A DNA stretch of 64,000 bases. It comes from Bacteroidales bacterium. Lineage in GTDB: Bacteria; Bacteroidota; Bacteroidia; Bacteroidales; WCHB1-69. The stretch spans positions 1,294 through 65,293 of the forward strand of contig JAGOKS010000001.1 in assembly GCA_017994425.1 (NCBI GenBank), in the 5' to 3' direction. The notes beneath the pieces were generated by a model. The model saw nothing but the letters and a program-made list of their open reading frames with translations. It had not been told where the DNA came from and did no database searches. Positions 39,592 to 55,470 of this stretch are shown piece by piece. A program made the translations under genes and the position numbers. Numbering within the stretch: position 1 is the stretch's first letter; the number at the start of each line of letters is the position of its first letter.

Positions 39592-39723
39592 CAGAAGAAA
39601 AAAGTGGATAGATTTGATTTGATTGCAACCACTCAAAAATGCTAAAACAACGACATTTTCCATCAATCATTAGAATCCATTCCTTTTAAAAATTAGTTAT
39701 TTAACAATTAAAATTTTTAAAAT

Positions 39724-41061
39724 ATGGCTTATTTATTTACATCCGAATCGGTTTCGGAAGGACATCCCGACAAAGTATCAGACCAAATATCAGACGCATT
39801 GTTAGACGAGTTTTTACGTCATGACCCACATTCAAAAGTAGCTTGTGAAACACTTGTTACCACCGGATTGGTAGTCTGTGCCGGCGAAGTAAAAACAAAA
39901 GGATATGTTGACATTCAAACTATTGCTCGTAAAGTAATCCAAGAAATCGGATATACAAAAGGCGAATACATGTTCGAAAGTAACTCTTGTGGCATTGTAT
40001 CGGCAATACACGAGCAATCGCCTGATATCAATCAAGGTGTTGAGAGATCGAAAATTGAGAATCAAGGTGCCGGCGACCAAGGCATGATGTTCGGCTATGC
40101 GGTGAAAGAAATGGATAACTTGATGCCTGTTCCCATCGAATTGGCACATATCTTTATGCAAGAATTGGCTGCCATTCGTAAAGAAGGGAAAAAGATGAAA
40201 TATTTACGTCCTGATTCCAAATCACAGGTAACAGTAGCTTACAACGAAAAAGGAGTGCCGGTAAACATCAATACCATCGTAATATCCACACAGCACGATG
40301 ATTTTGTAAAGCCGAAAGAAAGCGGGAAAAAAGCACAAGAAAAAGCAGACAATGAAATGCTTTCCATCATTAAAAACGATGTTGAAAAAATACTGATTCC
40401 ACGGGTAAAAAAAGCATGTCCCGAACATATTCGCAAGCTTTTCAAAGGCGATTATCAATTATATGTAAATCCTACGGGTAAATTTGTAATCGGTGGACCT
40501 CACGGTGACACCGGTTTGACGGGAAGAAAAATCATTGTCGACACCTACGGAGGCAAAGGTGCCCATGGCGGTGGTGCTTTTTCAGGCAAAGACTCCTCGA
40601 AAGTAGATCGTTCGGCGGCTTATGCAGCACGACATATTGCTAAAAACTTAGTGGCAGCAGGCGTTGCCAAAGAAGTATTGGTACAAGTTGCCTACGCTAT
40701 CGGCATTGCCAAACCGGTAGGCTTATTTATTAATACCTTTAATTCCTGCTTGCTGAAAGACAAAAACGGAAAGAAAATCACCGATGCTGATATAGCTGAT
40801 AAAGTTAATGCCGTTTTTGATTTACGCCCTTATGCCATCATCCAACGTTTTGGATTACAAAATCCTATTTTTCAATTAACTGCTTCTTACGGACATTTTG
40901 GAAGAGACCCTTTTACCAAAGAAATTGAAGTCTATTATACTGATGAGAATGTCAAAGCAAAGAAAGTTAATGGGGAAACAAAATATTTTAAAGAAGTAGA
41001 ATTTTTTGCTTGGGAAAAACTGGATTATGTACACAAGATTCAAAAGGCATTTGATTTATAA
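39724..41061 (+). CDS. metK: S-adenosylmethionine synthetase
   Basis: 445 aa. [30 protein letters not shown] and GGGAFSGKD motifs. Confidence 0.95.
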
Positions 41062-41122
41062 GATTTTCTTAAAATATTTAATGAAATAAAAAAATAAATG
41101 CTGTTTTTGTAATTTTTTTTTC

Positions 41123-41130
41123 TACTTTTG
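41123..41130 (+). promoter_or_regulatory. -7 box TAnnTTTG (tacttttg)
   Basis: 26 nt upstream of the ATG at 41156. Confidence 0.5.
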
Positions 41131-41155
41131 TCAACCTAACAAAACATTATTCTAA

Positions 41156-43063
41156 ATGGAAATTACAAGAACATTTGAATTATTAGATTGGATAGTAGAA
41201 AAATATCAAAAAAAAGATATCCTTGCGGGGAAAAAAGACGGGGAATGGATAACCTATAGCACCAACGATTACTACAAATATTCCGTATTGATGAGTTACG
41301 GTTTTCATGAAATCGGACTCCGAAAAGGGGATAAAGTGGTTAGTATTACAAACAATCGTCCCGAGTTTAATATTATCGACATGGCTCTTAGTATATTAGG
41401 AGTTATCCATGTGCCTATATATCCCACATTAAATCCTCACGACTACGAAATTATCGTAAATCATTCCGATGCCAAAGTTGTCATTATCGGTATACAGCAG
41501 ATATATAATCGCGTGCAACCGGCTTTTGCCAATTTCAAGCATCATCCCGAGATTTATACCTTAGATAAAATTGAGAATGAAAAGACATTGTATGATATTT
41601 TAAAGATTGGCATTTCAACTCGTAAAAAGAATGAAGAGCTTATCAACGAAATCAAAAAAACAATAGACACTGACGATATAGCTACCATTATTTATACTTC
41701 GGGTACTACCGGTGACCCTAAAGGAGTAATGTTATCGCATCGTAATTTGATTTCGAACTTCACTGCTCATGCCGAAGCCCAACCTTTGAACCATAATCAT
41801 AGAATTGTCAGTTTTTTACCATTGTGTCACATTTATGAACGCAGCATGAACTACGAATACCAATATTTGGGAGTAAGTATTTATTATGCGGAAAGTTTAG
41901 CTACCATTGCAGCAGATATTTTAGACGTTAAGGCAAACGGTTTTTGCTCCGTCCCCAGAATATTGGAAATGGTATACGATAAATTCATTGCTGCCGGTAA
42001 AGACCTTCACGGAATTAAGAAAATTATTTATTCTCTTGCTATTAATCACGGTCATCGTTACGACTTTAACAAAAATTTCTGGTATAACTTCTGGCAAAAA
42101 GTATTCGATAAACTGGTATATGTAAAATGGAGAGAGAAATTCGGCGGAAATAGAATGGCTATTGTTTGCGGCAGTTCTGCCGTGAGAGATAAAATTGTTC
42201 GTTTGTTCCATGCGGCCGGCTTAGAAGTGTATGAAGGATACGGTCTTTCGGAAACTTCTCCCGTTGTTGCTGTTAACAATGCAAATAACAAACGTGTTAA
42301 ACTCGGTACGGTAGGCACCATCCTCAAAGGTGTTGAGGTGAAACTCGCCGACGACGGAGAAATACTAACCAAAGGTCCTTGTTTGATGTTAGGTTATTAC
42401 AAAGATCCGGAATACACCAAACAAGTCATAGACGAAGAAGGGTGGTTTCATACTGGTGATATCGGTAAATTTGTAGATGGAGTTTATTTAAAAATTACCG
42501 ATAGGAAAAAAGAAATCTTCAAGCTATCGTCAGGGAAATACATCGCTCCGCAGTTGATAGAGAATAAGCTGAAAGAGTCGCCTTTAATTGTTGATTCGAT
42601 GGTGATTGGAGAAAACGAAAAGTTTGCCTCCGCCATCATTTCTCCAAATTTCAACTACCTGCATTTCTGGGCAGGGAAACACAAACTGCATTACAAAGAT
42701 AACGATGAACTTATTGCCCTCAAAGAAACCAATAAGCGTTTTCAAAAAGAACTTGATAGCTGTAATAAAACATTGGCACCGCACGAACAAATTAAATTTT
42801 TCCGTCTCGTTGCCGATGAATGGAGTCCGCAAACAGGAGAACTTTCGCCTACACTCAAATTAAAACGTAACGTATTAATGATTAAATACCAAAATCTTAT
42901 CAATCAAATTTATAAGAAACATACCGATTCCAACGGGCATGGATTTAGTTTGAAAAACATTAATTTATCCTTAATACAATTACGATCAACCATCGATACA
43001 GCCATTAAAAAAACAGGAGATACGCTCAAACCCGGGAATCCCAACAAAGAAAATAAAGATTAA
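41156..43063 (+). CDS. Long-chain fatty acid--CoA ligase (AMP-binding), paralog 1
   Basis: 635 aa. IIYTSGTTGDPKGVMLSHRN, GYGLSETSP and GWFHTGDIG motifs, plus a ~40-aa C-terminal extension absent from paralog 2. Confidence 0.85.
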   Translation: MEITRTFELLDWIVEKYQKKDILAGKKDGEWITYSTNDYYKYSVLMSYGFHEIGLRKGDKVVSITNNRPEFNIIDMALSILGVIHVPIYPTLNPHDYEIIVNHSDAKVVIIGIQQIYNRVQPAFANFKHHPEIYTLDKIENEKTLYDILKIGISTRKKNEELINEIKKTIDTDDIATIIYTSGTTGDPKGVMLSHRNLISNFTAHAEAQPLNHNHRIVSFLPLCHIYERSMNYEYQYLGVSIYYAESLATIAADILDVKANGFCSVPRILEMVYDKFIAAGKDLHGIKKIIYSLAINHGHRYDFNKNFWYNFWQKVFDKLVYVKWREKFGGNRMAIVCGSSAVRDKIVRLFHAAGLEVYEGYGLSETSPVVAVNNANNKRVKLGTVGTILKGVEVKLADDGEILTKGPCLMLGYYKDPEYTKQVIDEEGWFHTGDIGKFVDGVYLKITDRKKEIFKLSSGKYIAPQLIENKLKESPLIVDSMVIGENEKFASAIISPNFNYLHFWAGKHKLHYKDNDELIALKETNKRFQKELDSCNKTLAPHEQIKFFRLVADEWSPQTGELSPTLKLKRNVLMIKYQNLINQIYKKHTDSNGHGFSLKNINLSLIQLRSTIDTAIKKTGDTLKPGNPNKENKD

Positions 43064-43074
43064 AATATTATAGC

Positions 43075-44856
43075 ATGGAAATTACAAGGACATTCGATTT
43101 TCTTGAACAATTAAAAGAAAAATATGCGCATAAAACAGATATTTTAGCGCAAAAAAAGAATGGAGTATGGAAAAAAATAAGTGTCGACGAATATTATGAA
43201 AAGGCACATCTGCTTAGTTACGGCTTTTTAGCTTTGGGATTGCAACCACAAGATAAAGTGGTTACGGTTACTAACAATCGTCCCGAATGGAATTTTATTG
43301 ATATGGCCTTGGGAATGGCAAATTTAGTCCATGTGCCGGTATATCCTACCTTAGGAATTGAAGATTACAAATACATCATCCATCATAGCGATGCCAAGCT
43401 TGTTATTATAGGAAATGAAATTATTTTTAATGTAGTATATCCCGCTATTCAAGCCCTGGAAGTTAAACCGATTGTCTATACCGTGAATCCCATCGAAAAT
43501 CAAAAACATTTAGATGATATTAGCTTGTTGGGATTAAACACAAAAAACATCTATAACAAAACAATAGAGGAAAACAAAAAGAACATCAAACCTGAAGATT
43601 TATGTACCATTATTTATACCTCGGGCACTACCGGCACTCCCAAAGGAGTTATGCTGTCACATCGCGCCATCACTTTTAATGCAATGGCACATGGCAATAT
43701 GCAAATTGTTGACCACCGCCACAGGATGTTAAGTTTTCTCCCGCTTTGCCATATTTACGAACGTAGCATGAACTATTCTTTTCAATACCTTGGCGTTAGC
43801 ATTTATTATGCGGAAAGTCTAAGCACCATCGGTGCCGACTTGAAAGATGGCAATGTAAACGGATTCTGTTCCGTTCCCCGTGTATTGGAAATGACCTTTG
43901 AAAAGTTCCGTTCTGCAGGCAAAGACCTGAAAGGAATGAAAAAGAAAATCTACTTTTGGGCTTTTAATGCCGGACAGATTTTCGACAATAACAATAAATC
44001 ACCTTTCTATAGATTGAAATATTTCATTGCCGATAAATTGATATACAGCAAATGGAGAGAGAATTTAGGAGGCAACGAATTATTGATAGTCTCGGGAGGC
44101 TCTTCCATACAACCTAAGATAGTCAGACTTTTTACCGCAGCAAAAATGAAAGTAGTGGAAGGCTACGGATTGACCGAAACCTCTCCCGTTATTGCCGTTA
44201 ACAGACCCAAAGACAATCTCGTTCTCATCGGCTCTGTCGGGAAACTTATCGATGGTATCGAAGTGAAACTTGCCGATGACGGTGAAATCTTAACCAAAGG
44301 AGTATGCCTGATGATGGGCTATTACAAAGACCCTGCATATACCCAAGAAGTCATAGACGAAGAAGGCTGGTTCCATACCGGTGATATCGGCGAATTTACC
44401 AAAGACGGCTACCTCCGCATTACCGATCGTAAAAAAGATATTTTCAAATTATCGTCCGGAAAATACATTTCCCCACAGCTATTAGAAAATAAAATTAAAG
44501 AATCGCCATTTATCGAAAATGTCATGATAATCGGTGAAAACCAAAAATTTGTTTCTGCTTTGATATCTCCGAATTTCAATTATTTGCATTTCTGGGGAAG
44601 CAAACATAAACTTCATTATCGCGATAATGACGAATTGGTTGAAAATCCTCTGACAGTACAACGCATTAAAAAAGAAATCGACCAGATTAACGAGAAATTA
44701 GCCCCTCACGAACAAGTAAAACGCTTCCGCGTTGTGCACGAAGAATGGGGAAGCGCTACCGGCGAACTCTCCCCTACCTTGAAATTGAAAAGAAATGCCA
44801 TGCTGAAAAAATACGAAGCTACCATTGCCGAAATATTCGGCTCCTATTTCGATTAA
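43075..44856 (+). CDS. Long-chain fatty acid--CoA ligase (AMP-binding), paralog 2
   Basis: 593 aa. Colinear with paralog 1 from MEITRTF to the C-terminus, with the same AMP-binding motifs. Confidence 0.85.
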   Translation: MEITRTFDFLEQLKEKYAHKTDILAQKKNGVWKKISVDEYYEKAHLLSYGFLALGLQPQDKVVTVTNNRPEWNFIDMALGMANLVHVPVYPTLGIEDYKYIIHHSDAKLVIIGNEIIFNVVYPAIQALEVKPIVYTVNPIENQKHLDDISLLGLNTKNIYNKTIEENKKNIKPEDLCTIIYTSGTTGTPKGVMLSHRAITFNAMAHGNMQIVDHRHRMLSFLPLCHIYERSMNYSFQYLGVSIYYAESLSTIGADLKDGNVNGFCSVPRVLEMTFEKFRSAGKDLKGMKKKIYFWAFNAGQIFDNNNKSPFYRLKYFIADKLIYSKWRENLGGNELLIVSGGSSIQPKIVRLFTAAKMKVVEGYGLTETSPVIAVNRPKDNLVLIGSVGKLIDGIEVKLADDGEILTKGVCLMMGYYKDPAYTQEVIDEEGWFHTGDIGEFTKDGYLRITDRKKDIFKLSSGKYISPQLLENKIKESPFIENVMIIGENQKFVSALISPNFNYLHFWGSKHKLHYRDNDELVENPLTVQRIKKEIDQINEKLAPHEQVKRFRVVHEEWGSATGELSPTLKLKRNAMLKKYEATIAEIFGSYFD

Positions 44857-44889
44857 TACAGAAACTGATTTCGTGCCGAAAAAAGAATT

Positions 44890-44917
44890 GTAGAGACATA
44901 GAATGCTATGTCTCTAC
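44890..44917 (+). terminator. Perfect 12-bp hairpin after the second ligase gene (weak T-tract)
   Basis: gtagagacatag-aatg-ctatgtctctac. Confidence 0.4.
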
Positions 44918-44929
44918 GTTATTCCAATA

Positions 44930-45577
44930 ATTACTGTTTTGAAAGCAACAAAAAATATTAATAAAAGGATGTTTTTTGTTATCGTACGTTGTAAAAAGAA
45001 TAATACATAGTTATGCTCCAGTGATTAGATGCTTATCTGTTATTGTTAGGGTGCCCACCTTAGTCCGATTTGCCAGCTATGTAATGCTTCTTGGAAAGCC
45101 ATCAAATGAACCTAAGGAGCGCTCCCTAACACCGAAGGATGCTTATCAAATGATTGGACGATGCCTTTGCGTTTATCGTTTACTAACTGTGTAAATCAAA
45201 TTTCACGGCTTTACGCTCAGAAACTACTGAATTTAGTTGAACTATAATGATTCATGATTCATAATTTCTCTCGTGATTTACTTTTTACTTTTACCTTGTC
45301 CCTTTCCCCTTGGTTAGCGAGTTTGTTGCAAGTATTTCCCACCTTCATTAAAACGCCGTGCCTGTCTTTTTCATAGGAGATTGGGGAGTAGTTGCAAGGA
45401 GCTCCCATGCTCGTTGAAACGAGATTGCAATCTCATTTGAAAGAGTAAGGCAGGCCGTTTTAACGGACTTGGGACGTCCGGCGTACGACCTTGGGAACTC
45501 ATAAATGAGGCTATTACTATTGTTATCATTTATGTTTTTTTTTCAATGAAACAAATAAAAGTATATTTTTGCAAAAA
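44930..45577. other. ORF-poor, GC-richer, hairpin-dense spacer of unknown nature (candidate structured RNA and/or decayed recombination modules)
   Basis: Only one ORF of at least 60 aa, with non-protein-like composition. Nested stems 45045-45051/45124-45130 and 45058-45063/45112-45117, and local hairpins at 45410-45423, 45421-45434 and 45455-45466. Degenerate copies of the tggggag..ttgcaag module occur at 45382-45398 and near 45326. Confidence 0.35.
45564..45571 (+). promoter_or_regulatory. -7 box TAnnTTTG (tatttttg), copy 0 of the repeated promoter module
   Basis: gtatatttttgcaaaaacc resembles the two downstream promoter modules. It abuts the first 34-bp element. Confidence 0.4.
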
Positions 45578-45611
45578 CCACCCCTCTAAATCTCCCCAAG
45601 TGGGGAGACTT
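45578..45611 (-). repeat. 34-bp element, copy 1 (ccacccctctaaatctccccaagtggggagactt), inverted relative to the cassette copy
   Basis: 33/34 identical to the reverse complement of 49791-49824. It contains the palindrome tctcccca-ag-tggggaga. Confidence 0.85.
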
Positions 45612-45671
45612 GCAAGTGCAAGAGAGTTACAACAAACATTCATTTTTTTGTAAACCGATATAATTTATTTG

Positions 45672-45679
45672 TATTTTTG
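45672..45679 (+). promoter_or_regulatory. -7 box TAnnTTTG (tatttttg) driving the truncated stub ORF
   Basis: 22 nt upstream of the ATG at 45701. Confidence 0.5.
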
Positions 45680-45700
45680 CAAAACCAAATCATATAAAAA

Positions 45701-45820
45701 ATGAACCAAAGCTACAAGGCAATAAACTATCAATACGCTGTGGGGCAAAGTCTCCCCATTACCCACCCCTCTAAATCTCCCCAAATGGGGAGACTTGCGA
45801 AGGCGAGAGGGTTACATTAA
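45701..45820 (+). pseudogene. Truncated Rhs-tip cassette head (39 codons)
   Basis: MNQSYKAINYQYAVGQSLPI matches the cassette heads up to the left palindrome arm. It then reads through the inverted 34-bp element to a stop. Confidence 0.55.
45763..45796 (-). repeat. 34-bp element, copy 2 (ccacccctctaaatctccccaaatggggagactt)
   Basis: 34/34 identical to the reverse complement of 49791-49824. Confidence 0.9.
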
Positions 45821-45856
45821 ACAAGCATTTTTTCGTAAACCGATATAATTAATTTG

Positions 45857-45864
45857 TACCTTTG
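45857..45864 (+). promoter_or_regulatory. -7 box TAnnTTTG (tacctttg) for the first full toxin cassette
   Basis: 22 nt upstream of the ATG at 45886. Confidence 0.55.
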
Positions 45865-45885
45865 CATATCGAAATCATATAAAAA

Positions 45886-46719
45886 ATGAACCAAACCTAC
45901 AAGGCAACACTCTCACAACACGCACTACCGCAGTTCCTCCCCATTTATTCGTGGGGCTGTTTGAATTTTACATTAAGGTACTCATGCTTTCCGCTTCGCT
46001 CCAAGTGGGGAGGGAAGGGAGGGGTGATTTGGGGAGATTTAGAGGAGTGGAGCCTTAAAACTATGATGTTTGAGAAATATCCTTCCATTTCACCGTATAC
46101 CTATTGTGCAAATAATCCGATTCTTTTAGTAGATGATGATGGTCAAGAAATAAGAATTTATTATAAAGAAAAAACAGGTATTGCAAGGTTGTTTGAAAAG
46201 CCAAAATCAATAGTTTATACACCTGGAATGGTATATAGTGGAGGAAATAATTTTGTGAATAATGCCGTAAAAGCATTAAATTATGTAAAACAAGGGGATC
46301 AATTAGGGATTATAGAAAAAATTGCAAAAAATAATAAATTAATAAAAATAAAAGAAACTAAAGGTAATACTTTATATAATCCTTTTTCAAATACGGTAAG
46401 ATTTAATACAAAATTAGGACTGGCTTGTGTTGATGAAAATTTAGATGAAACAGGTGGAAAACAATCACCTGCGTTAGGTTTATTACATGAACTTGGTCAT
46501 GGATTTGTTGATATTTTTAAATCAATGAGTGAGAAATTATTTTTGTTAGGAACAGATGACCAATATGATAATAAAGAAGACGAATTTGTAATAACTCAAA
46601 TTGAAACACCAGCAGCAAAGATATTGGGGGAAGGAATAAGAGAAAATCATGATGGGAATGATTTTATAGCTAAAGATGTTAATTCAAAAGAAGAAATAAA
46701 TTCAAAAGAAAAGGAATAA
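45886..46719 (+). CDS. Rhs-tip polymorphic toxin cassette B: HExxH zincin-like metallopeptidase toxin domain
   Basis: The head ends in FEKYPSISPYTYCANNPILLVDDDGQE, the Bacteroidota Rhs core terminus pattern. The variable C-terminal part contains LLHELGHGF. The head carries a 28-aa insertion relative to cassette E. Confidence 0.75.
   Translation: MNQTYKATLSQHALPQFLPIYSWGCLNFTLRYSCFPLRSKWGGKGGVIWGDLEEWSLKTMMFEKYPSISPYTYCANNPILLVDDDGQEIRIYYKEKTGIARLFEKPKSIVYTPGMVYSGGNNFVNNAVKALNYVKQGDQLGIIEKIAKNNKLIKIKETKGNTLYNPFSNTVRFNTKLGLACVDENLDETGGKQSPALGLLHELGHGFVDIFKSMSEKLFLLGTDDQYDNKEDEFVITQIETPAAKILGEGIRENHDGNDFIAKDVNSKEEINSKEKE
46030..46119 (+). repeat. Conserved cassette-head homology block (partial) in cassette B
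   Basis: tggggagatttagaggagtgg...atgatgtttgagaaatatccttccatttcaccgtatacctattgtgcaaataatccg is shared with C, D and E. Confidence 0.8.
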
Positions 46720-46724
46720 TAAAG

Positions 46725-47213
46725 ATGAAAATTTTATTTTTAATTTTATATATGATGATTTCTTATTTGTCATTTTCACAATCAGATACTATAAATAATT
46801 TAATTAATAAGGTTTTATTTGATGAAAATGTCAAAATAAAAATAACATACAAAAAAACAACAATACCAAATTCAATAAAAAAAGAATTAAAAAATAAATA
46901 TGGCGTTTTTAGAATTGCAAATCCAAATATAAAGTATCAGCAAAACGATGTTATTAGATTTCCATGGCAATTACCAGATAATCAAATGTTATTTCTTATT
47001 AATAAAGGAAATTATTATGCTTTTATTTTTATTCATGGAGGTAGAGGAAAATCAATAAATTTTATTTTTTGTGAATTAGATAGAAACAAAAAAATTAGAA
47101 ATATTGATTATTTCTATATGCTATATAAAGTAAAAAGCATAGATGATTTTTTTTATGCAATAAAAAATGAAAAATATAAAAAAAATAAAATGATGTATGG
47201 TAACATAGAATAG
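46725..47213 (+). CDS. Putative immunity protein for cassette B (exported)
   Basis: 162 aa. It starts 5 nt after the toxin stop and has a signal peptide (MKILFLILYMMISYLSFSQS). Confidence 0.6.
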   Translation: MKILFLILYMMISYLSFSQSDTINNLINKVLFDENVKIKITYKKTTIPNSIKKELKNKYGVFRIANPNIKYQQNDVIRFPWQLPDNQMLFLINKGNYYAFIFIHGGRGKSINFIFCELDRNKKIRNIDYFYMLYKVKSIDDFFYAIKNEKYKKNKMMYGNIE

Positions 47214-47320
47214 TGGAAAATGTACCATCGGGTCCTTTATGTGGTAGTGTGCCATTTTAGGTATTTTCAAAAAATGAAAAATATAGTACAGAAATTCAAA
47301 GAGATAAGAAAAAGTAGAGA

Positions 47321-47527
47321 GAAAAACAAGGCTAAAGCAAAGCGATGAAGGATTATGTAGTTAATAATTTCAAGGCAATAAACTATCAATACGCTGTGGG
47401 GCAACTCTCCACTTACATTGATTTAGAGGGGTGTAGCCTTGAAACTATGATGTTTGAGAAATATCCTTCCATTTCACCCTATACCTATTGTGCTAATAAT
47501 CCGATGAAGTATGTAGACCCGACGGGG
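47321..47527 (+). repeat. Conserved cassette-head homology block, cassette C
   Basis: It runs from gaaaaacaaggctaaagcaaagcgATG through ..gtagacccgacgggg and includes ~24 nt of non-coding leader. Confidence 0.8.
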
Positions 47528-48139
47528 GAGGAAGGAGAAGATAGTGAATCATGGATTAAACGTAAGGATGGAACTTATGTTTTTGACAGTAGAGTGATAA
47601 CTCAAAAAGATGCAGAAAAATATTATGGAAAAGATGCTGAAGCAATTGCAGACGGGTACTATATTCAAACAACAAAGGGAGAGGTAATATTCTTAGACAA
47701 TGGGGTATACATGTTAAATGATAAAAAATATCAAGTAAAGGATCAAGCAAAAGGAATAGCTAAAGTAGTGGCTGAAATCAGAAATTTTGATGCTTCATTA
47801 GAAGGGCATAATGATGGTGATAATAGCGGCGACCCTTGGTTACAAAAAAATGTGGCTCCGGTATTAGAAGGATTGGCATTATTAAATCCACTTATTGGTA
47901 TTGCCAATGGCGTATATACAGCCGCTGCAGGTGAAGATATTTATGGAAATGAAGCCAGCACTGCAAATAGGATAATTTCAGGAGTGGGTGTGATTGCAGG
48001 AGGAGTGAGTAATGTTGCCAAAGGAACGGTGTCTACAGTTTCAAAAGGAATTGACAAAGCTATTGATGCTTGGACAGTGTATCAAACAATAAAAGCAGGG
48101 TATAAAAAACAAAATAATAATGAAAACAAGAAAAAATAA
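47345..48139 (+). CDS. Rhs-tip polymorphic toxin cassette C: Gly/Ala-rich C-terminal module (pre-toxin-TG-like or membrane-active)
   Basis: Head MKDYVVNNFKAINYQYAVGQ...FEKYPSISPYTYCANNPMKYVDPTGE. The tail reads LLNPLIGIANGVYTAAAGEDIYGNEASTANRIISGVGVIAGGVS. Confidence 0.7.
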   Translation: MKDYVVNNFKAINYQYAVGQLSTYIDLEGCSLETMMFEKYPSISPYTYCANNPMKYVDPTGEEGEDSESWIKRKDGTYVFDSRVITQKDAEKYYGKDAEAIADGYYIQTTKGEVIFLDNGVYMLNDKKYQVKDQAKGIAKVVAEIRNFDASLEGHNDGDNSGDPWLQKNVAPVLEGLALLNPLIGIANGVYTAAAGEDIYGNEASTANRIISGVGVIAGGVSNVAKGTVSTVSKGIDKAIDAWTVYQTIKAGYKKQNNNENKKK

Positions 48140-48383
48140 AGCCATTCTTTTCTCTTGTGGTTTTTTTGGCATTCTGGGATTTATTACTCTTTCGTCAAAG
48201 TTTCTTAATATTTTTAAAATGGGACCTTCCAGTTGGGAAGAAATAGGTCAATATTTACCTTTATCAATTATTTGTTCTTTGGTATTTGCAGCATGGGTAA
48301 CATGGGGTGGAGTTGGCGATAGTTTAATAAAGTTCTTTGCAAATCGCCGTAAAAATAAAAAAAAGGATAATAATGGGAAGTGA
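48120..48383 (+). CDS. Putative membrane immunity protein for cassette C
   Basis: 87 aa. It overlaps the toxin 3' end by 20 nt and has two hydrophobic segments (AILFSCGFFGILGFITL; LPLSIICSLVFAAWVTWGGV). Confidence 0.55.
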   Translation: MKTRKNKAILFSCGFFGILGFITLSSKFLNIFKMGPSSWEEIGQYLPLSIICSLVFAAWVTWGGVGDSLIKFFANRRKNKKKDNNGK

Positions 48384-48400
48384 TAAATTCTATGGATAAA

Positions 48401-48610
48401 AGAAAAAAACAAGACTAAACCAAAGCGATGAAAAATTATATAGTCAATAATTTCAAGGCAATAAACTCGCAATACACTGTGGGGCAACTCTCTATTGGTA
48501 TTGATTTAGAGGGGTGCAGCCTTAAAGCTATGATGTTTGAGAAATATCCTTCCATTTCACCGTATACCTATTGTGCGAATAATCCGGTAATGTTTGTTGA
48601 CCCGACGGGG
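48401..48610 (+). repeat. Conserved cassette-head homology block, cassette D
   Basis: Same block as in C and E, with scattered substitutions. Confidence 0.8.
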
Positions 48611-49207
48611 AAAGAGTGGGATTTAAGTGGTTTGACCGAATCTCAAAAGAAAACATGGGAATCAACAATGGCGTTTGCCTGTAAGTATAGTAAGTCATTC
48701 AATAAGATGTATAATCAATTGAACAAGTCTTCAACAGTCTATAAAGTAGCTGTTGATACAAAAATAAATACCAAAGGGGAATTTAATGCTAAGAATAACA
48801 CAGTTGCATTTAATTCTGAAGAATCAATAAAACAAGGAGACGTATATATTGAAGAATTATTTCATGCTTATCAAAAGGATAATGCTGATTTATATGAAAG
48901 TGGCAAAAGTTTTAATAAAGAATTTGAGGCAAAAGTTGCAAAACTTATTATAAAGAGTGAAATGGGTTCACCAATTATGAATTTTAAAAATACTAATATG
49001 GAAGGAATGGCTAATTATTTATTTGATAACGAAACGTATAAATTTTGTTTTCCGGATGAATTAGAAAGTAAAGAATTTAATGATAAATATATGAAAGAGG
49101 CAGAAAATTTTAAAAAATGGAATATTGAAAATAATTATGGAGATTCTCATTACAGAACTTTAACAAATCAATCGCCGAAATCATTATTAAAATTATTTGG
49201 AAAATGA
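48428..49207 (+). CDS. Rhs-tip polymorphic toxin cassette D: paralog of the cassette B toxin fold with EELFH in place of HELGH
   Basis: Head ..FEKYPSISPYTYCANNPVMFVDPTGKE. The body shares TKG..(Y/F)N...NTVxFN with cassette B, then reads YIEELFHAYQ. Confidence 0.7.
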   Translation: MKNYIVNNFKAINSQYTVGQLSIGIDLEGCSLKAMMFEKYPSISPYTYCANNPVMFVDPTGKEWDLSGLTESQKKTWESTMAFACKYSKSFNKMYNQLNKSSTVYKVAVDTKINTKGEFNAKNNTVAFNSEESIKQGDVYIEELFHAYQKDNADLYESGKSFNKEFEAKVAKLIIKSEMGSPIMNFKNTNMEGMANYLFDNETYKFCFPDELESKEFNDKYMKEAENFKKWNIENNYGDSHYRTLTNQSPKSLLKLFGK

Positions 49208-49650
49208 AAAAAACAGTAATTATAATAGGACTTACAATCTGTGTATTTTATAGTAATCATGTGTCAACTCAAAACGACATTGGTTATAAATTAGGTTGTT
49301 TAAATTATTATACAAATAATGTTTTTGAGAAATTATTATCTATTATAGACACAACTACAAGAAAAAATTTAATTGAGAAAAGGGATTGTCCTTTTAATAT
49401 TCATATAATGTTGGATACTGTAACAGGGTATCCTATTGAAATTAATATTAAAGATAATTGCAGTATTTTGTCAGAAAAACAAAAGGAGAAGTTTAAAGAA
49501 ATTTTATTTAAAACCCAATTTGATTTTTGTCATGAAGAGCATGATGTTCCTGATAAGCTTGCCAAAAGTCTTTCTCCAGGTTCATTTGGTTTTTTAACAG
49601 GGAGTTTTAGTACTTGGTGGAATATAAAAGTATTATATGAAGAGAAATAG
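49204..49650 (+). CDS. Putative immunity protein for cassette D (exported)
   Basis: 148 aa. Its ATG overlaps the toxin stop (ATGA), and it has a signal peptide (MKKTVIIIGLTICVFYSNHVSTQ). Confidence 0.6.
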   Translation: MKKTVIIIGLTICVFYSNHVSTQNDIGYKLGCLNYYTNNVFEKLLSIIDTTTRKNLIEKRDCPFNIHIMLDTVTGYPIEINIKDNCSILSEKQKEKFKEILFKTQFDFCHEEHDVPDKLAKSLSPGSFGFLTGSFSTWWNIKVLYEEK

Positions 49651-49705
49651 GTAGTGTATCAAGTTAGGGCATAGAAAAATAAAGAATTAAAAGACAAAAG
49701 AATAA

Positions 49706-49914
49706 GAAAAAAACAAGGCTAAAGCAAAGCGATGAAGGATTATGTAGCTAATAATTTCAAGGCAACATACTCGCAATATGCTATGGAGCAAAGTCTCCCC
49801 ATTTGGGGAGATTTAGAGGGGTGGAGCAGAGAAACGATGTTTGAAAAATATCCTTCCATTTCACCGTATACTTATTGTGCGAATAATCCGATGAAGTTTG
49901 TAGACCCAACGGGG
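49706..49914 (+). repeat. Conserved cassette-head homology block, cassette E
   Basis: Same block; it contains the intact palindrome. Confidence 0.8.
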
Positions 49915-50124
49915 GAAGATTGGTATGAAGCCGAAGATGGAAAGGTTACATGGACAGATTGTACAAACAAAAAAGATTTTACAGCATCTGGTATAAAAGG
50001 AACATATTTAGGAAAAACACATAAAGCAGATGGAAAATATTACAGTCTGTTTGGGCAAACAATGAATGCCAATTCAAAACAACTCAAAATCAAAAAAAAA
50101 TTGATGTATTGGAGTATGAAATAA
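49732..50124 (+). CDS. Rhs-tip cassette E: short (130 aa) variable tail, no cognate immunity ORF
   Basis: Head MKDYVANNFKATYSQYAMEQSLPIWGDLEGWS..FEKYPSISPYTYCANNPMKFVDPTGE, with only ~65 aa of variable tail. The next gene is convergent rlmN. Confidence 0.6.
   Translation: MKDYVANNFKATYSQYAMEQSLPIWGDLEGWSRETMFEKYPSISPYTYCANNPMKFVDPTGEDWYEAEDGKVTWTDCTNKKDFTASGIKGTYLGKTHKADGKYYSLFGQTMNANSKQLKIKKKLMYWSMK
49791..49824 (+). repeat. 34-bp element in coding orientation (aagtctccccatttggggagatttagaggggtgg)
   Basis: It encodes SLPIWGDLEGW and contains the palindrome tctcccca-tt-tggggaga. Confidence 0.9.
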
Positions 50125-50197
50125 GGTAATTAAAATAAGTTATAACCGGTCAACCTTATTTAGGCATTAACACTTTTCACTATTCACTCTTCACTTT

Positions 50198-51247
50198 TCA
50201 GCCTTTCTCGTTGGCTAATTGTCCGCAGGCGGCGGCAATATCTTTTCCTTTGCTGAGGCGGAGATTCACAATCAGATTTTTGCTTTCAAGCAGTTCCATA
50301 AAAAGTCTCAGGTTTTGTTTGTTGCTGCTTTTAAAGTCGGCATAGGGATGGGGGTTGTATTCGATAAGGTTTATTTTAACCGGAAACCGTTTGCAAAAAA
50401 CAGCCAGTTTACGGGCATGCTCAGCCGTATCGTTAACGGCATGGAGTAAAAGATACTCGATAGAGATGCGTAATCCTGTTTTTTGATAGTAATAAGCAAG
50501 GGCATTGGAAAGTTGAGTAAGGGAATTTGTTTGGGTAATGGGCATGAGTTCCGCCCGTTGGCTATTGTCGGCGCTATGTAGTGAGAGTGCCAGATGCACT
50601 TTTATTCCGTCGTCGGCTAAGCGGCGTATTCCGTTGCCAATGCCGGAAGTTGAGAGGGTAATCCTGTCTTTCGACATTGCCAGGCCCTTGGCTGAAGTAA
50701 TATAATTGATTGCCTGTATCACATTCTCGTAATTCAGCAGAGGTTCGCCCATCCCCATCCATACAATATTGGTAAGAGGATGCCCGAAAAGCTGTTTGCT
50801 TTCTTCGTTGGCAATAAACACTTGTTCGTACATTTCATGGGCAAGCAGGTTGCGTGTAAATCCCAGCTTGGCAGTAGCACAAAAGCGGCATCCCAGTCCG
50901 CAGCCTACCTGAGAGGAAACACAAACGGTAGTGCGGTTTTTCGAGGGTATCAATACCATTTCTATCACTTGAGCATCGGCTAATTTCAACGCATATTTCA
51001 GGCTGCCGTCGCTGCTTTGTTGGCGTTCGTCTATGCTAATTTTTTGCAGGAAGAAATTCTCTTTAAGGGCTTGTCGCAAAGGAAGGGGAATGTTAATCAT
51101 ATCGTCGAAAGCAGCGACATTTTTCTTCCACAACCATTCGGAAATTTGTTTTGCCCGAAAGGCTTTTTCAACATGAGCAACTACCCAAGCGGATAGTTGC
51201 TCATCGTTTAATGTTCTGATATCGTCTTTGGGAGTATTCCCATCCAT
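50198..51247 (-). CDS. rlmN: 23S rRNA/tRNA (adenine-C2)-methyltransferase, radical SAM
   Basis: 349 aa. CGLGCRFCAT CxxxCxxC motif and MGMGEPL. Confidence 0.9.
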   Translation of the reverse strand: MDGNTPKDDIRTLNDEQLSAWVVAHVEKAFRAKQISEWLWKKNVAAFDDMINIPLPLRQALKENFFLQKISIDERQQSSDGSLKYALKLADAQVIEMVLIPSKNRTTVCVSSQVGCGLGCRFCATAKLGFTRNLLAHEMYEQVFIANEESKQLFGHPLTNIVWMGMGEPLLNYENVIQAINYITSAKGLAMSKDRITLSTSGIGNGIRRLADDGIKVHLALSLHSADNSQRAELMPITQTNSLTQLSNALAYYYQKTGLRISIEYLLLHAVNDTAEHARKLAVFCKRFPVKINLIEYNPHPYADFKSSNKQNLRLFMELLESKNLIVNLRLSKGKDIAAACGQLANEKG

Positions 51248-51248
51248 C

Positions 51249-52340
51249 TTATACTTTATAAAAAGGCATTTTTACCACAACGGCTTTCAAGGCTTTCTCT
51301 CTGATAATAACAAATATTTCTGTGCCTGCTTTGGCAAATTCGGCTTTGATTAAAGCAGTACCTATGGCTTTTTTAACCGAAGGACCTTGCGTGCCGGAGC
51401 AAACATGTCCTATGTTATTGCCTTTATCGTCGACAATTTCATAACCCTGACGAGGAATACCTCTGTCTATCATTTCAAAGCCTACAATTTTACGACTCAC
51501 GCCTTCTTGTTTTTGTTTCAGCAAGGCAGCTTTGTTGATAAAGTTTTTATGGTCAACAAATTTGGTTATCCAACCCAAACCGGCTTCAATGGGGGAAGTG
51601 GTGTCGTTTATTTCGTGACCGTATAAGCAGAAACCCATTTCCAGGCGGAGGGTATCGCGGGCACCCAAACCGATAGGCTTGATACCGTATTCTTTACCGG
51701 CTTCAAAAACGGCATCCCATATTTTGAAAGCATCGGCATTTTTAAAATAAATTTCACAGCCGCCGGAACCGGTATAACCCGTTGTCGACAAGAGCACATT
51801 GGGGATACCTGCAAAGGTAAGGTATTTAAATGTATAATACTCCATGTTCTCAATCGGCTCGGAGCAAAGTTTCTGCATGGCTTTCAATGCCAAAGGACCT
51901 TGTATCGCCAATTGTGATGTTTCGTCGGAAGCATTGTACAATTCAGCTCCGAATTTTTTATTTTGGCTTACCAGCCAATTCCAGTCTTTGTCGATGTTGG
52001 AAGCATTGACTACCAATAAATAATGATCTTCCTTGATACGATAGGTTAAAAAATCGTCCACAATACCGCCTGTTTCGTTGGGGAAACAGCAATATTGCAC
52101 TTTGCCGTCGGTCAATGCCGCCGTATCATTAGAAGACACCCATTGAACAAATTCCAATGCTTTCGGTCCTTTTACATATATCTCGCCCATGTGCGAAACA
52201 TCGAAAACACCTACTGCCTTGCGAACATGTTCATGTTCGATAACAAGACCTTCGTATTGCACAGGCATGTAAAAACCTGCAAATTCTACCATTTTACCAC
52301 CAATTTCTTCATGCTTTTTAGCATATACCGTATACTTCAT
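51249..52340 (-). CDS. gcvT: Glycine cleavage system aminomethyltransferase
   Basis: 363 aa. VFDVSHMGE and [12 protein letters not shown] motifs. Confidence 0.9.
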
Positions 52341-52563
52341 AAATCTAATATTTAATTTGTTGTAAAATTATATACCCTCATTTTTTTATTTTGCAAACGT
52401 ACATAAATTTTGAATGCAAGTGACGTGTTTTCGCATTTTTATATTACTTCTACATACTATTTTATTTATTTTAAAACTATTTAAAATTTTTTTATGATTG
52501 CTTCGTTATAAAAAATACGTATAAAAAAAATCAATCTATCACTATAAAAATAATAATAAAAGA

Positions 52564-55470
52564 ATGAAAAAATTAGCACTTATTCTCTTTTTGTGTGCAG
52601 GTATAGCATACAATGCATTCAGTCAGAAAAACTACACCTATGAAACCGTGCCCAACGATCCGCTCAAAGCGCGTATTTACACTTTAGACAATGGTTTAAA
52701 AGTGTATATGTCAGTGAACCCCGATGAGCCGAAAATCAAAATTACCATTGCCACCAAGGCAGGGAGTAAATTAGACCCTGCTGAAACAACCGGTTTGGCT
52801 CACTATTTTGAGCATCTGATGTTTAAAGGCACTAAAAATTTCGGTACAACCAATTGGGCAGCCGAAGAACCCCTGTTAAACGAGATTGAACGTCTTTTTG
52901 AAGAATACCGTAAAATTGACGAATCCAAAGAAGCCGAACGCAATGCCATTTATGCAAAAATAGACAGCATTTCACAAATAGCCGCTTCTTATGCTATTCC
53001 CAACGAATACGATAAGCTTATGTCTATCATCGGCTCCAGTGGCACCAACGCCGGCACATGGGTCGACTTTACCAATTACTATGAAAACATCCCTTCCAAT
53101 CAGTTGGAAAACTTCTTGATAATCCAAGCCGACCGTTTTCAAAATCCGGCTATCCGTTTATTCCACACTGAATTGGAAACTATTTATGAAGAAAAAAACA
53201 TGACATTGACACAAGACGGACGCCGTGTGAATGCTGCTTTGATGGAAGCTCTTTTCCCCAACCACCCTTATGGCACGCAAACCACCATAGGCACCCAAAA
53301 AGATTTACGCAATCCTTCTATTACCAATGTTAAGAAATTTTTCTCTACCTATTATGTCCCTAACAATATGGCATTTATTTTAGCCGGCGATTTCAATCCT
53401 GAAGAAGCCATTGCTTTAATAGATAAATATTTCGGAGGCATGAAATCCTCTCCTCTTCCTGAGTTTACCTTCAAACCCGAAGAGCCGATTACCGCTCCCA
53501 TCGTTAAAGAAGTGGTAGGTAAAGAAGCTGAAAACATCCGATTAGCATGGCGTTTTAACAATCCCCGCTCCGAAGAAATACCGGTGTTGATATTGGCAGA
53601 AATGATACTTACTAACGGTAATGCCGGTTTAGTAGATTTAAACATTAACCAAAAACAACGTACCTTGGGAGCAGGTTCAGCACCGTCCATGTTGTATGAC
53701 TATACCTATATGATGATGTACGGCAGCCCCAAAGCCGGACAAAGCTTAGAAGAAGTGAGAGATATACTGCTTGAACAAATCGACTCCCTCCAACAGGGTG
53801 CTTTCCCCGAATGGTTGTTGCAAGCATGTATCAACGATTTACGCTTACGCGAAATCCAAGGCTACGAAAGCAATGAAGGACGTGCCGGCGCCCTTGAAGA
53901 AGCTTTTTACCTTGATATTCCTTGGGCTGACCAAGTAGTGTCTCTCGATCGTTTGGAAAAAATTACCAAACAAGAAATCATGGATTTTGCTAAGAAATAT
54001 TTACGCAGAGATAATTACGTTGTCATTTATAAACGCAAAGGCAAACCTACCGATATCGAAAAAGTGAAAAAACCTAAAGTTACCCCTATCAAAATTAACA
54101 GAGCGGATAAAAGTGATTTTGTTAAAATGATAGAAACCCGCAAAGTAAACCCTATCGAACCCGTATTTATCGATGTATCGAAAGTAGGATATCTCATGTT
54201 AGACGATTATACCAAAATGTTTCATACCAAGAATTATGACAATGAATTATTTGAATTGAATTATGTGTACGACATCGGCACCTATCATGACAAATATTTA
54301 AACTTAGCTTCTTCTTATTTGGAATATTTGGGAACCGATAAATTTACCCCCGAACAAATCAAGGAAGAATTCTATAAGTTAGGATGTACGTTCAGTATGT
54401 CGGCAGGCAGTAACCGCAGCTACATTACCATCTCCGGTTTATCGAAAAACATGGATGCCGCCATGCAATTGTTTGAAGATATTGTTAAAAATGCAAAACC
54501 AAACAAAGAAGCGTTGGATAATCTGGTAAGCGACATATTAAAATCACGAGAAAATGCAAAACAAAATCAAAATGCTATTTTCTCTTATTTGGTTACTTAC
54601 GGCATGTATGGGCAAAACTCTCCCGTATTTGCCAATCAGCTTTCCGAAACGGAATTAAAAGCACTTACGCCGGAACAAATGATAACCAAAATACAAGAAT
54701 GGATGACCTATAAACATTTTGTTATTTATTACGGTCCCGATAATTCGGCAATTGTTACCAAAAGTATCAAGGCACACCACAACCTCAACAACCTTAAAGA
54801 TGTACCGGCAGAAATACATTTTACCGAAGACGTACCTGCCAAAAACCGTGTTTTTGTTGTAAACTACGACTCTCCTCAAACAACTATGTTAAGTCTTTCT
54901 TTTGGAGATACCTACCAACGTATGCTCACTCCTAAAATAAGATTATACAATGAATATTTTGGTGGCAGCATGAATTCTATTGTCTTCCAGGAAATGCGTG
55001 AAGCCCGTGCATTGGCTTATACCGCTATGTCTCAATATACCTCTCCTTCAGATTTGAAAGCATTGCACCAGAATATTTCTTATATTGCCTGTGGTACCGA
55101 TAAATTAGCTCAAGCCATCACAACTTTTGATGAATTAATGAGCAATATGCCCGAGAATGAAGCTGCCTTTGCTATTGCCAAAGAATCGGCTATCAATAGC
55201 TATCGTACTGCCCGTATTACCAAAGACAGAATTGTTTGGACCTATCTGGCATGGGAAAAACTGGGATTGAAAGAAGACCCGCGCAAAGAAAATTTTGAAG
55301 GACTCTTCCCCCTCACGCTACAAGACATCAAACAATTCCAAAAAGAGTATGTAACCGGAAAACCCCGCACCTTTGTCATTCTTGGTAATACCAAAGAAAT
55401 GGATATGAAATATCTGAAAAAAATTGGCAAAGTGAAAGTGTTGACCTTAGAAGAAATATTCGGATATTAA
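52564..55470 (+). CDS. M16 family (insulinase-like) zinc peptidase
   Basis: 968 aa. Signal peptide and inverted zincin motif HYFEHLMFKG. Confidence 0.85.
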   Translation: MKKLALILFLCAGIAYNAFSQKNYTYETVPNDPLKARIYTLDNGLKVYMSVNPDEPKIKITIATKAGSKLDPAETTGLAHYFEHLMFKGTKNFGTTNWAAEEPLLNEIERLFEEYRKIDESKEAERNAIYAKIDSISQIAASYAIPNEYDKLMSIIGSSGTNAGTWVDFTNYYENIPSNQLENFLIIQADRFQNPAIRLFHTELETIYEEKNMTLTQDGRRVNAALMEALFPNHPYGTQTTIGTQKDLRNPSITNVKKFFSTYYVPNNMAFILAGDFNPEEAIALIDKYFGGMKSSPLPEFTFKPEEPITAPIVKEVVGKEAENIRLAWRFNNPRSEEIPVLILAEMILTNGNAGLVDLNINQKQRTLGAGSAPSMLYDYTYMMMYGSPKAGQSLEEVRDILLEQIDSLQQGAFPEWLLQACINDLRLREIQGYESNEGRAGALEEAFYLDIPWADQVVSLDRLEKITKQEIMDFAKKYLRRDNYVVIYKRKGKPTDIEKVKKPKVTPIKINRADKSDFVKMIETRKVNPIEPVFIDVSKVGYLMLDDYTKMFHTKNYDNELFELNYVYDIGTYHDKYLNLASSYLEYLGTDKFTPEQIKEEFYKLGCTFSMSAGSNRSYITISGLSKNMDAAMQLFEDIVKNAKPNKEALDNLVSDILKSRENAKQNQNAIFSYLVTYGMYGQNSPVFANQLSETELKALTPEQMITKIQEWMTYKHFVIYYGPDNSAIVTKSIKAHHNLNNLKDVPAEIHFTEDVPAKNRVFVVNYDSPQTTMLSLSFGDTYQRMLTPKIRLYNEYFGGSMNSIVFQEMREARALAYTAMSQYTSPSDLKALHQNISYIACGTDKLAQAITTFDELMSNMPENEAAFAIAKESAINSYRTARITKDRIVWTYLAWEKLGLKEDPRKENFEGLFPLTLQDIKQFQKEYVTGKPRTFVILGNTKEMDMKYLKKIGKVKVLTLEEIFGY

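Follow-up and report, generated by a model that had tools for sequence, protein, structure and literature searches.

Why should a run of displaced Rhs toxin tips, detached from any rhs gene, carry a start codon in front of every tip? The question is raised by a stretch of 64,000 nucleotides from a Bacteroidales bacterium of the GTDB lineage WCHB1-69 (NCBI GenBank assembly GCA_017994425.1, contig JAGOKS010000001.1, positions 1,294 to 65,293 of the forward strand), which will be called the window below. At its positions 45,886 to 50,124 lie four forward-strand open reading frames (ORFs), the cassettes B, C, D and E (Table 1), which have a repeat of about 215 nt in common. Orphan rhs-CT/rhsI and cdiA-CT/cdiI modules, together with the displacement of Rhs C-termini, were described by Poole et al. 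(2011, PMC3150448), and the present locus is likewise an array of orphan Rhs C-terminal toxin/immunity cassettes, situated in a low-GC island between housekeeping genes. What makes it unusual is that it is detached from any rhs gene, that it is one of many dispersed arrays, and that it has a lineage-specific promoter, leader and start module which is kept in frame. Orphan cassettes are usually regarded as silent spares, with the immunity protein as the sole expressed product; the start modules described here suggest cassettes that would be expressed.

A non-Rhs start module in front of the tips

A sequence-only reading of this stretch had taken the shared head of the four ORFs, about 60 residues, as the terminus of the Rhs core. 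The four ORFs do share this head, but it is a composite in which only the last ~26 codons (MFEKYPSISPYTYCANNPxxxVDPTGE) are Rhs. When compared with TIGR03696, the model of the Rhs-associated core, the heads match positions 52/56-76 of 76 only, at 17-26 bits against a cutoff of 32.5. The cassettes therefore hold a sub-cutoff terminal match and not a complete core domain, and they have no match to the RHS_repeat family of Pfam (PF05593). In the Rhs genes and the longer Rhs fragments of the lineage, the tip is preceded by ...YAFNAKELDEENGMYYYSARYYAPPTFISRDP, whereas the window heads read MKDYVVNNFKAINYQYAVGQ(S)LP-I-WGDLEGW-S... before MFEKY, which is unrelated to Rhs; AINYQYAVGQLSTYIDLEGCSLETMMFEK is an example of a stretch that bridges the junction between this N-terminal part (N-part) and the tip. 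Immediately past VDPTGE the cassette sequences diverge. The upstream portion of the head, some 35 codons with the ATG and an A-rich leader of ~25-110 nt before it, is thus a non-Rhs module built around a hairpin repeat. The earlier suggestion that leader and N-part are not a piece of a Rhs reading frame is borne out by the lineage sequences, and no leader was found colinear inside a long Rhs ORF in any of the fetched loci, so that nothing there overturns it. The first homologue search, made with the 65-aa head, returned only short proteins, and colinearity was judged by locus scans instead.

As had also been noticed from the sequence, the conserved block includes leader as well as coding sequence. 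The direct repeat family (47318-47532, 48401-48615 and 49705-49919; 87% and 76% identity in the repeat search) starts before the ATG, and a 98-nt repeat core is found in all four cassettes. C, D and E have a common leader ending in ...CTAAAGCAAAGCG-ATG, with an in-frame TAA 12 nt 5' of the ATG (GGC TAA AGC AAA GCG ATG), and this upstream stop is kept in 15 of 15 related leaders. When the 15 leaders are aligned, the last ~25 nt are near-invariant, and a module of ~110 nt is conserved inside leader families.

The DNA of the N-part carries the hairpin repeat AAGTCTCCCCATTTGGGGAGATTTAGAGGGGTGG, which is intact in E (a 10-bp hairpin, 49791-49824) and the loop of which holds an in-frame insertion of 84 nt in cassette B. 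The 18-nt hairpin motif occurs four times, against 0.01 occurrences expected by chance. RNA folding of the heads gave a strong 10-bp hairpin in E only; it is degenerate in C and D (z-scores -1.1 to -2.0), so a conserved RNA structure is not required. The leader/hairpin is not a known RNA family either: Rfam searches of the whole window at gathering thresholds, and of 44800-50250 at E <=1, returned nothing relevant in the array. Most window-type heads have lost the first catalytic Asp (RDP) of the autoprotease motif.

The evidence that carries our interpretation comes from the reading frame of these modules in 157 related loci, which were fetched from genomes and metagenomes, in part by scanning one genome per species. 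In 36 cases a Rhs tip is preceded by a forward-oriented hairpin leader, and all except one of these leaders are in a single uninterrupted frame with the tip (35 of 36), with a Met ~20-25 codons upstream of the hairpin in each in-frame leader. The distance from leader to tip ranges from 47 to 768 nt and falls into nine or more classes; the Rhs joint always adjoins the 3' arm of the hairpin, and the point at which Rhs is entered varies. The fusion joints include ITAGYLYAPFGEI; NAKELDEE; LDEENG; RYYAPPTF; SRDPMFEKY; ..TM followed by MFEKY; and FNAFNCMKAYSF. In leaders of a second type, MKNY...NYCVNNFGFDIQ..., the joint lies 161 aa before the tip. The length variants of the N-part (24, 60 and 84 nt) are all multiples of three. 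Under a neutral expectation each joint would be in frame one time in three, and the chance of such an outcome is about (1/3)^8 or less. The in-frame leaders at nine or more fusion points therefore argue for selection to keep the cassettes translatable. As read from these alignments, a non-Rhs start module has been fused in frame to C-terminal Rhs fragments at many points.

Thirteen copies of the window's own type, which begin with MKDY, point the same way. Their ATG and its CTAAAGCAAAGCG context are invariant, and the tip behind them varies at 1/1/6 sites by codon position (pN/pS 0.05). With an invariant ATG, a stop upstream of it and an open frame into the tip, the cassettes do not look like toxin fragments devoid of initiation signals. 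The proposal of independent translation, made earlier from the window alone, thus gains strong if indirect support from the ATG, the frame and the promoters of the first module, which are described below.

Leaders with a start codon are not confined to this type. One variant has a 21-nt tandem repeat (NYCVNK(Y/F), two to three times; L005 at 1669, L006 at 965 and 4486, L011 at 1602 and 3413) and is either fused to a 161-aa Rhs fragment or found 'bare' at array ends. In other Bacteroidales lineages, Met-bearing leaders on short Rhs fragments were seen by eye and are uncounted, among them MP(H/R)xLS...PPPAAR followed by HY(H/N)S.LSIWLSVDP, and MIKKRVSNRSQNNMGE; start-bearing leaders may be general in the order. 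The rumen and gut orphans of the sister 'WLSVDPMSDKYPS' Rhs lineage (L021, L022, L024, L051, L063, L067, L070, L071 and others) have recurrent leaders of their own, such as MPHHLS...PPPAAR joined to HYHS and YRPQNQ.LPQGNL..SYTFSAKEKD. Orphans of other lineages are also found 3' of full-length genes of 2000-2860 aa (L021, L027, L033, L054). Within the window's lineage, the Rhs homologues P0191-P0309 come in two discrete sizes, ~490 aa and ~740 aa, each with a short non-Rhs Met leader, which suggests a small number of founding truncations that spread and, in doing so, exchanged their toxin tips.

Recombination at the Rhs tip

The sequence-only reading had offered independent translation as an alternative to a role of the cassettes as recombination substrates. 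That opposition does not survive comparison with a close relative, the contig L007 of the Bacteroidales metagenome-assembled genome JAQVNO01, which is syntenic with window positions 40001-54000 at 95-99% identity. L007 has cassettes B and E only and is without window 47533-49684, which holds C and D. Its single downstream head corresponds to window C on the 5' side and to window E on the 3' side, and the crossover lies within a 20-nt run of the tip, AAATATCCTTCCATTTCACC. Judged from the alignment, this is the product expected of homologous recombination between heads, and it marks the tip as a recombination handle. The same toxins also occur behind different heads: the B toxin is found behind three of them, and the D toxin behind a true Rhs core (P0314). 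These comparisons show the Rhs-tip block to be the site of homologous recombination by which cassettes are added, deleted and re-paired. The block provides the core homology for recombination with other rhs copies that is characteristic of orphan rhs-CT/rhsI modules. In this the array is like the orphans of Poole and co-workers, which are also tandem toxin/immunity pairs with a short conserved core ending in DPxG as recombination homology, and whose toxin domains are also found on full-length Rhs proteins.

The two strains differ in an uneven manner. The tip and toxin of B have 0 differences in 218 codons, and the N-part of B has several substitutions besides the 84-nt in-frame insertion of the hairpin loop. 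Hairpin/promoter modules take up ~290 nt more in the window than in L007. Up to about 45400 the window and L007 are 91-98% identical, and their similarity breaks off at the array boundary (45555-45577). Cassette B with its immunity gene (46029-47532) differs at 1 of 381 codons, and the housekeeping flank (40001-45576) is ~97% identical, with 200-nt segments going down to 83% (metK, 40201-40400). This mosaic suggests recent cassette exchange or local recombination in the flank.

It is worth noting how far these arrays stand from complete rhs genes. A shell of YD repeats had been reported as missing from the window, and the search agrees: tblastn with six long Rhs proteins over the 64 kb matches the four tips only (Table 1), and no YD-repeat shell of roughly >=1000 aa lies upstream of a core within the window. 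Unlike the orphans of Poole and co-workers, then, the array is not 3' of any rhs within 64 kb, and neither are those of L001 and L003 downstream of a full-length rhs. Full-length rhs genes do exist in the lineage, as is shown by partial proteins of >1000 aa. The relative's assembly has 25 tips on 8 contigs. In L003 eight cassettes stand in a row between mutY-like and ZIP-transporter genes, and housekeeping genes flank each of the three loci examined. The hairpin, promoter and leader motifs are confined to arrays throughout 170 kb of same-species DNA, and arrays end in bare leaders or in heads or hairpins.

Two further observations bear on how arrays may change. L003 contains two 99% identical toxin cassettes (at 4112 and 8633) with identical immunity genes, ~4.5 kb apart, and their identity points to a recent duplication within the array. 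In L159 (3104-3283, P0018) a leader/N-part head gives way, precisely at the hairpin, to another leader in reverse complement, and the junction is flanked by an immunity-like ORF in the opposite orientation; either two arrays were joined head to head at the palindrome, or the junction is a chimera of metagenome assembly.

Proposed expression of the cassettes and the rival readings

A sigma-70 promoter scan is uninformative for Bacteroidota, so a scan for the Bacteroidetes-type -33/-7 elements (TTTG/TAnnTTTG) was used in its place on the + strand of 44000-51000. The sole full match stands before a remnant fifth head, not before B. B had been credited with a canonical promoter; there is a -7 box 21 nt upstream of its ATG, but the -33 element is imperfect (TTCG). 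Beyond the sites in Table 1, the scan gave just two + strand -7 boxes (46248 and 46538), both within the B ORF. The promoter module is duplicated (45578-45760 and 45763-45945, 82% identity), and after each inverted copy of the hairpin come a promoter module of Bacteroidetes type and an ATG (ATGAACCAAACCTACAAGGCAA...). In the arrays of the relative, this promoter module is found in front of 'MNQ' cassettes. Between cassettes there is no predicted terminator.

The explanation that we favour, with moderate confidence, is that the array is a reservoir of orphan Rhs toxin/immunity cassettes which would be transcribed and translated without a shell, mainly in the service of immunity expression. The unit of the array is an A-rich leader, an ATG, ~35 non-Rhs codons with the hairpin, ~26 Rhs core codons, the toxin and a tightly spaced immunity gene. 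The array would form one operon, transcribed from the Bacteroidetes-type promoters in the first module, and each shell-less cassette would be translated from its own ATG. Translation of the toxin ORF would be retained mainly for expression of the immunity gene downstream, through translational coupling or the avoidance of polarity, and the toxin itself would be deployed only upon recombination into a full-length rhs elsewhere in the genome. The ribosomes of Bacteroidetes do not use Shine-Dalgarno sequences (PMC6847099, PMC7797042). Proteobacterial orphans are mostly without start signals, and their immunity genes have Shine-Dalgarno sites of their own (PMC3150448); here, unlike in those orphans, each cassette has a dedicated non-Rhs leader with an in-frame ATG, and promoters are interspersed. 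The toxin domains are intact, with dN/dS of 0.12-0.22 for well-diverged pairs, and 74% of 185 junctions between a toxin and the next ORF are overlapping or <=10 nt, ATGA being the commonest arrangement.

Several points weigh against this explanation. Its rationale of coupling or anti-polarity is one that we infer rather than observe, and tight spacing of toxin and immunity genes is common also in phyla that do use Shine-Dalgarno sites. The scan found no Bacteroidetes-type promoter upstream of C, D or E. In the 13 MKDY-type copies the N-part varies at 11/7/11 sites by codon position (pN/pS 0.38), and the start has G, not A, at -3, which is suboptimal by the Bacteroidetes context rule (PMC6847099). 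The relative's fetched loci contain no full-length rhs into which a cassette might recombine; the longest Rhs 5' of a tip is 161 aa, with two further copies cut by contig ends. Since L007 comes from a metagenome assembly, its missing C and D could reflect the assembly path; this is unlikely because the C and E heads of the window are nowhere identical over more than ~20 nt.

Some of these points sit well with the canonical orphan model (PMC3150448), on which the array would be a silent reservoir of untranslated, displaced Rhs tips, the ATG and leader would be junction debris, and recombination into the main rhs alone would matter. Recombination at the tip, the weakly constrained N-part and the lack of own promoters in C, D and E speak for this model. 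It would, however, leave unexplained why the frame is kept by nearly all leaders across nine or more independent joints, why no variation is seen in the ATG, in its context or in the stop before it, why N-part indels come in multiples of three and why promoter modules are interspersed in the arrays, and we hold it to be unlikely. At the other end of the spectrum, the cassettes might be toxin-antitoxin (TA)-like modules for addiction or growth control in the style of Salmonella Rhs-CT/RhsI, with the toxin acting inside its producer, the immunity protein serving as antitoxin and the islands being stabilised as a result. There is precedent for Rhs-CT made from internal starts with TA-like function: the Salmonella modules have a promoter and CTG/ATG starts inside the conserved Rhs core (Starsta et al. 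2020, PMC7043789). The favoured explanation likewise has shell-less main or orphan Rhs C-terminal toxins and immunity genes expressed from starts that are independent of a full-length gene; own starts and promoters are present, and at least eight chromosomal sites keep an array with no rhs next to it. Unlike in Salmonella, the promoter and ATG lie in a foreign hairpin module upstream of a core remnant of which 26 Rhs codons are left. Moreover, the immunity ORFs of B and D are signal-peptide-like and that of C is a predicted membrane protein, whereas the toxins have no predicted export signal; toxin and 'antitoxin' would then be in different compartments, which argues against a cytoplasmic TA function. 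We consider this reading improbable. Less improbable, though still held only tentatively, is that the hairpin-bounded promoter/ATG module acts as an 'expression adaptor' which captures Rhs toxin cassettes in frame, so that the shell-less operons would be expressed independently and their products would have a function of their own, be it island addiction, growth control or delivery independent of the shell.

The hairpin-bounded module could also be a mobile or site-specific recombination element, attC-like or similar to a miniature inverted-repeat transposable element (MITE), that seeds arrays and produces in-frame fusions as a by-product. Promoter-carrying MITEs such as the Correia elements of Neisseria are short, have terminal inverted repeats and no ORF, and alter adjacent genes through an outward promoter. 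The hairpin module is comparable in being short, with terminal inverted repeats (24-34 nt, 45763-45796 and 46027-46050, separated by about 240 nt; L003, L005, L008 and L009 are laid out alike), no ORF of its own and an outward-reading promoter. The position of the Rhs joint at the hairpin 3' arm, the nested insertions in hairpin loops, the variable module copy number between strains, the arrays that end in bare leaders or hairpins and the head-to-head junction of L159 all speak for such an element. Unlike Correia-type MITEs, the module supplies a start codon and frame besides a promoter, and all its copies in 170 kb of same-species DNA are within arrays. A target-site duplication was not identified, neither a recombinase nor a transposase stands next to the array, and an insertion mechanism alone would give no in-frame products. 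A mobile element is thus a doubtful account of the array by itself, though compatible with the favoured explanation. A phage or mobile-element origin was rejected as the hairpin and tip patterns are absent from viral contigs. The recombinase-associated acquired interbacterial defence (rAID-1) clusters of Bacteroidales (Ross et al. 2019, doi 10.1101/471110) are likewise low-GC, co-oriented arrays with repetitive intergenic sequences and orphan immunity genes, probably expressed for defence, and the present array has at least two co-oriented genes, GC <=41% and repetitive intergenic sequences in the form of the conserved leader modules. Unlike rAID-1, in which toxin genes are absent, it has intact ones, its repeats include coding Rhs-tip sequence, and it has no XerD-like tyrosine recombinase on its 5' side, where an AMP-binding ligase gene is followed by ~1 kb of ORF-free DNA before the array. 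An integron would have an integrase, attI and promoterless cassettes bounded by attC; the flanks contain no integrase, and the cassettes have starts and some of them promoters. Both readings were rejected because no recombinase is present. The last reading to be weighed, part of the original proposal, takes the products for effectors that act on their own and are loaded onto or into a secretion apparatus or a Rhs shell supplied in trans, with the conserved Rhs tip, alone or together with the N-part, as the handle. Strong purifying selection on the tip protein sequence (6 of 8 variable sites at third codon positions), the intact toxins and the larger, discrete shell fragments often retained by related cassettes (the ~490 and ~740 aa proteins) could be taken in its favour. 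Yet cassettes keep anything from 26 to about 290 Rhs residues, or more for proteins of the ~740-aa class, and the recombination block is the only part that could count as a constant handle. The loss of the RDP Asp, the lack of a known partner, the looseness of the N-part and its 84-nt indel between strains with identical toxins count against it as well, and conservation of the tip could be imported by gene conversion from main rhs genes. We regard this reading as very improbable. Of the original interpretation, then, independent translation and the non-Rhs nature of leader and N-part are retained, and the handle and the exclusion of a recombination role are given up.

What these loci indicate is that, in an anaerobic-digester lineage of Bacteroidales, Rhs tips have time and again been joined in frame to a foreign start module, and rumen Bacteroidales, by eye, appear to do likewise with different leaders. 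This suggests either that orphans need translation to be of use in a phylum without Shine-Dalgarno initiation or that Rhs toxins have some role even without a shell; both alternatives bear on how large toxin/immunity repertoires are kept and deployed.

Layout of the array, its toxins and its setting

The features of the array are collected in Table 1. The count of four cassettes given earlier agrees with the four tips, but there is a fifth, remnant head as well, and E is a truncated toxin remnant without an immunity gene; the other members of its 90% cluster are proteins of 238-268 aa that diverge from E past ...NANSKQ.

Table 1. Features of the cassette array, in window positions
Feature	Position	Strand	Description
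-7 box TATTTTTG	45564-45571 (part of 45555-45577)	+	left array edge; TAnnTTTG scan
Hairpin repeat, inverted copy 1	45578-45611	-	CCACCCCTCTAAATCTCCCCAAGTGGGGAGACTT; 34 nt, 97% complementary to 49791-49824
Canonical Bacteroidetes-type promoter	45647-45679	+	TTTG-N21-TATTTTTG; sole full -33/-7 match in 44000-51000
Remnant fifth head	45703-45762	+	ATG + 20 codons (MNQSYKAINYQYAVGQSLPI), interrupted by next hairpin repeat (sequence, alignments)
Hairpin repeat, inverted copy 2	45763-45796	-	34 nt, 100% complementary to 49791-49824; 96% over 24 nt to 46027-46050
-7 box TACCTTTG	45857-45864	+	21 nt 5' of B ATG; -33 degenerate (TTCG)
Cassette B	45886-46719	+	277 aa; N-part 45886-46065, Rhs tip 46066-46143
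Immunity-like ORF of B	46725-47213	+	162 aa; signal-peptide-like N-terminus; start 5 nt past B stop
Leader module of C	47240-47344	+	A-rich, GGTAGTGTGCCATTTTAGG ... CTAAAGCAAAGCG, with in-frame TAA (15-leader alignment)
Cassette C	47345-48139	+	264 aa; N-part 47345-47449 with degenerate hairpin, Rhs tip 47450-47527
Immunity-like ORF of C	48120-48383	+	87 aa; two hydrophobic segments; 20-nt overlap with C end
Leader of D	48401-48427	+	conserved (repeat search, alignments)
Cassette D	48428-49207	+	259 aa; Rhs tip 48533-48610
Immunity-like ORF of D	49204-49650	+	148 aa; signal-peptide-like N-terminus; ATG overlaps D stop (ATGA), -4 nt
Leader module of E	49651-49731	+	alignments
Cassette E	49732-50124	+	130 aa; right array end; Rhs tip 49837-49914

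By sequence, B, C and D have the layout of a variable C-terminal toxin directly past DPxG followed by an immunity-like gene, and the small ORFs noticed behind them do have signal-peptide-like N-termini or hydrophobic segments; no export signal is predicted on the toxins. The B toxin has an HExxH domain that is distantly Peptidase_M91-like (Pfam E 0.06; BLASTP E 3e-5 against a genuine PF14891 domain, in which HELxHG lines up), and it has no sequence match in the PDB. The C toxin matches PT-TG weakly (E 2e-4) and ends in a glycine-rich tail. The D toxin is one of a family that spans 163 representative clusters and in which the motif EExxH...N.E.EA is invariant and the domain is C-terminal throughout, RHS-repeat/DUF6443 proteins included. 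Its AF2 model (pLDDT 94.6) has no significant structural match in the PDB, and the list of non-significant matches is enriched in zincin-like peptidases. A search for contigs encoding the exact D protein returned no record. In GenBank the four cassette proteins (KBA86_00200 to KBA86_00230) are all annotated as 'hypothetical', and it is this annotation that the present analysis would change.

The GC content is 25-35% in the array (46000-50000) and 35-44% in the flanks. The neighbours are housekeeping genes (metK, two AMP-binding acyl-CoA ligase genes, rlmN, gcvT and an M16 peptidase gene), as had been said of the upstream side, and there is no recombinase, transposase or integrase adjacent to the array among the window ORFs and flank genes. 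The two ligase genes, which are long-chain acyl-CoA ligase-like (41156-43063 and 43075-44856, +), are tandem paralogues with a nucleotide cross-match of ~66% in the BLAST of the window against L007. Between the second of them and the array are ~700 ORF-poor nucleotides (44857-45560), with no convincing ORF and no Rfam match, in which a terminator-like hairpin (44890-44917) and a 39-nt imperfect palindrome (45391-45464) are found. Further upstream, a SAM-II (long-loop) riboswitch at 39598-39655 (+; 61 bits against a gathering score of 44) lies directly 5' of the metK ORF (39724-41061).

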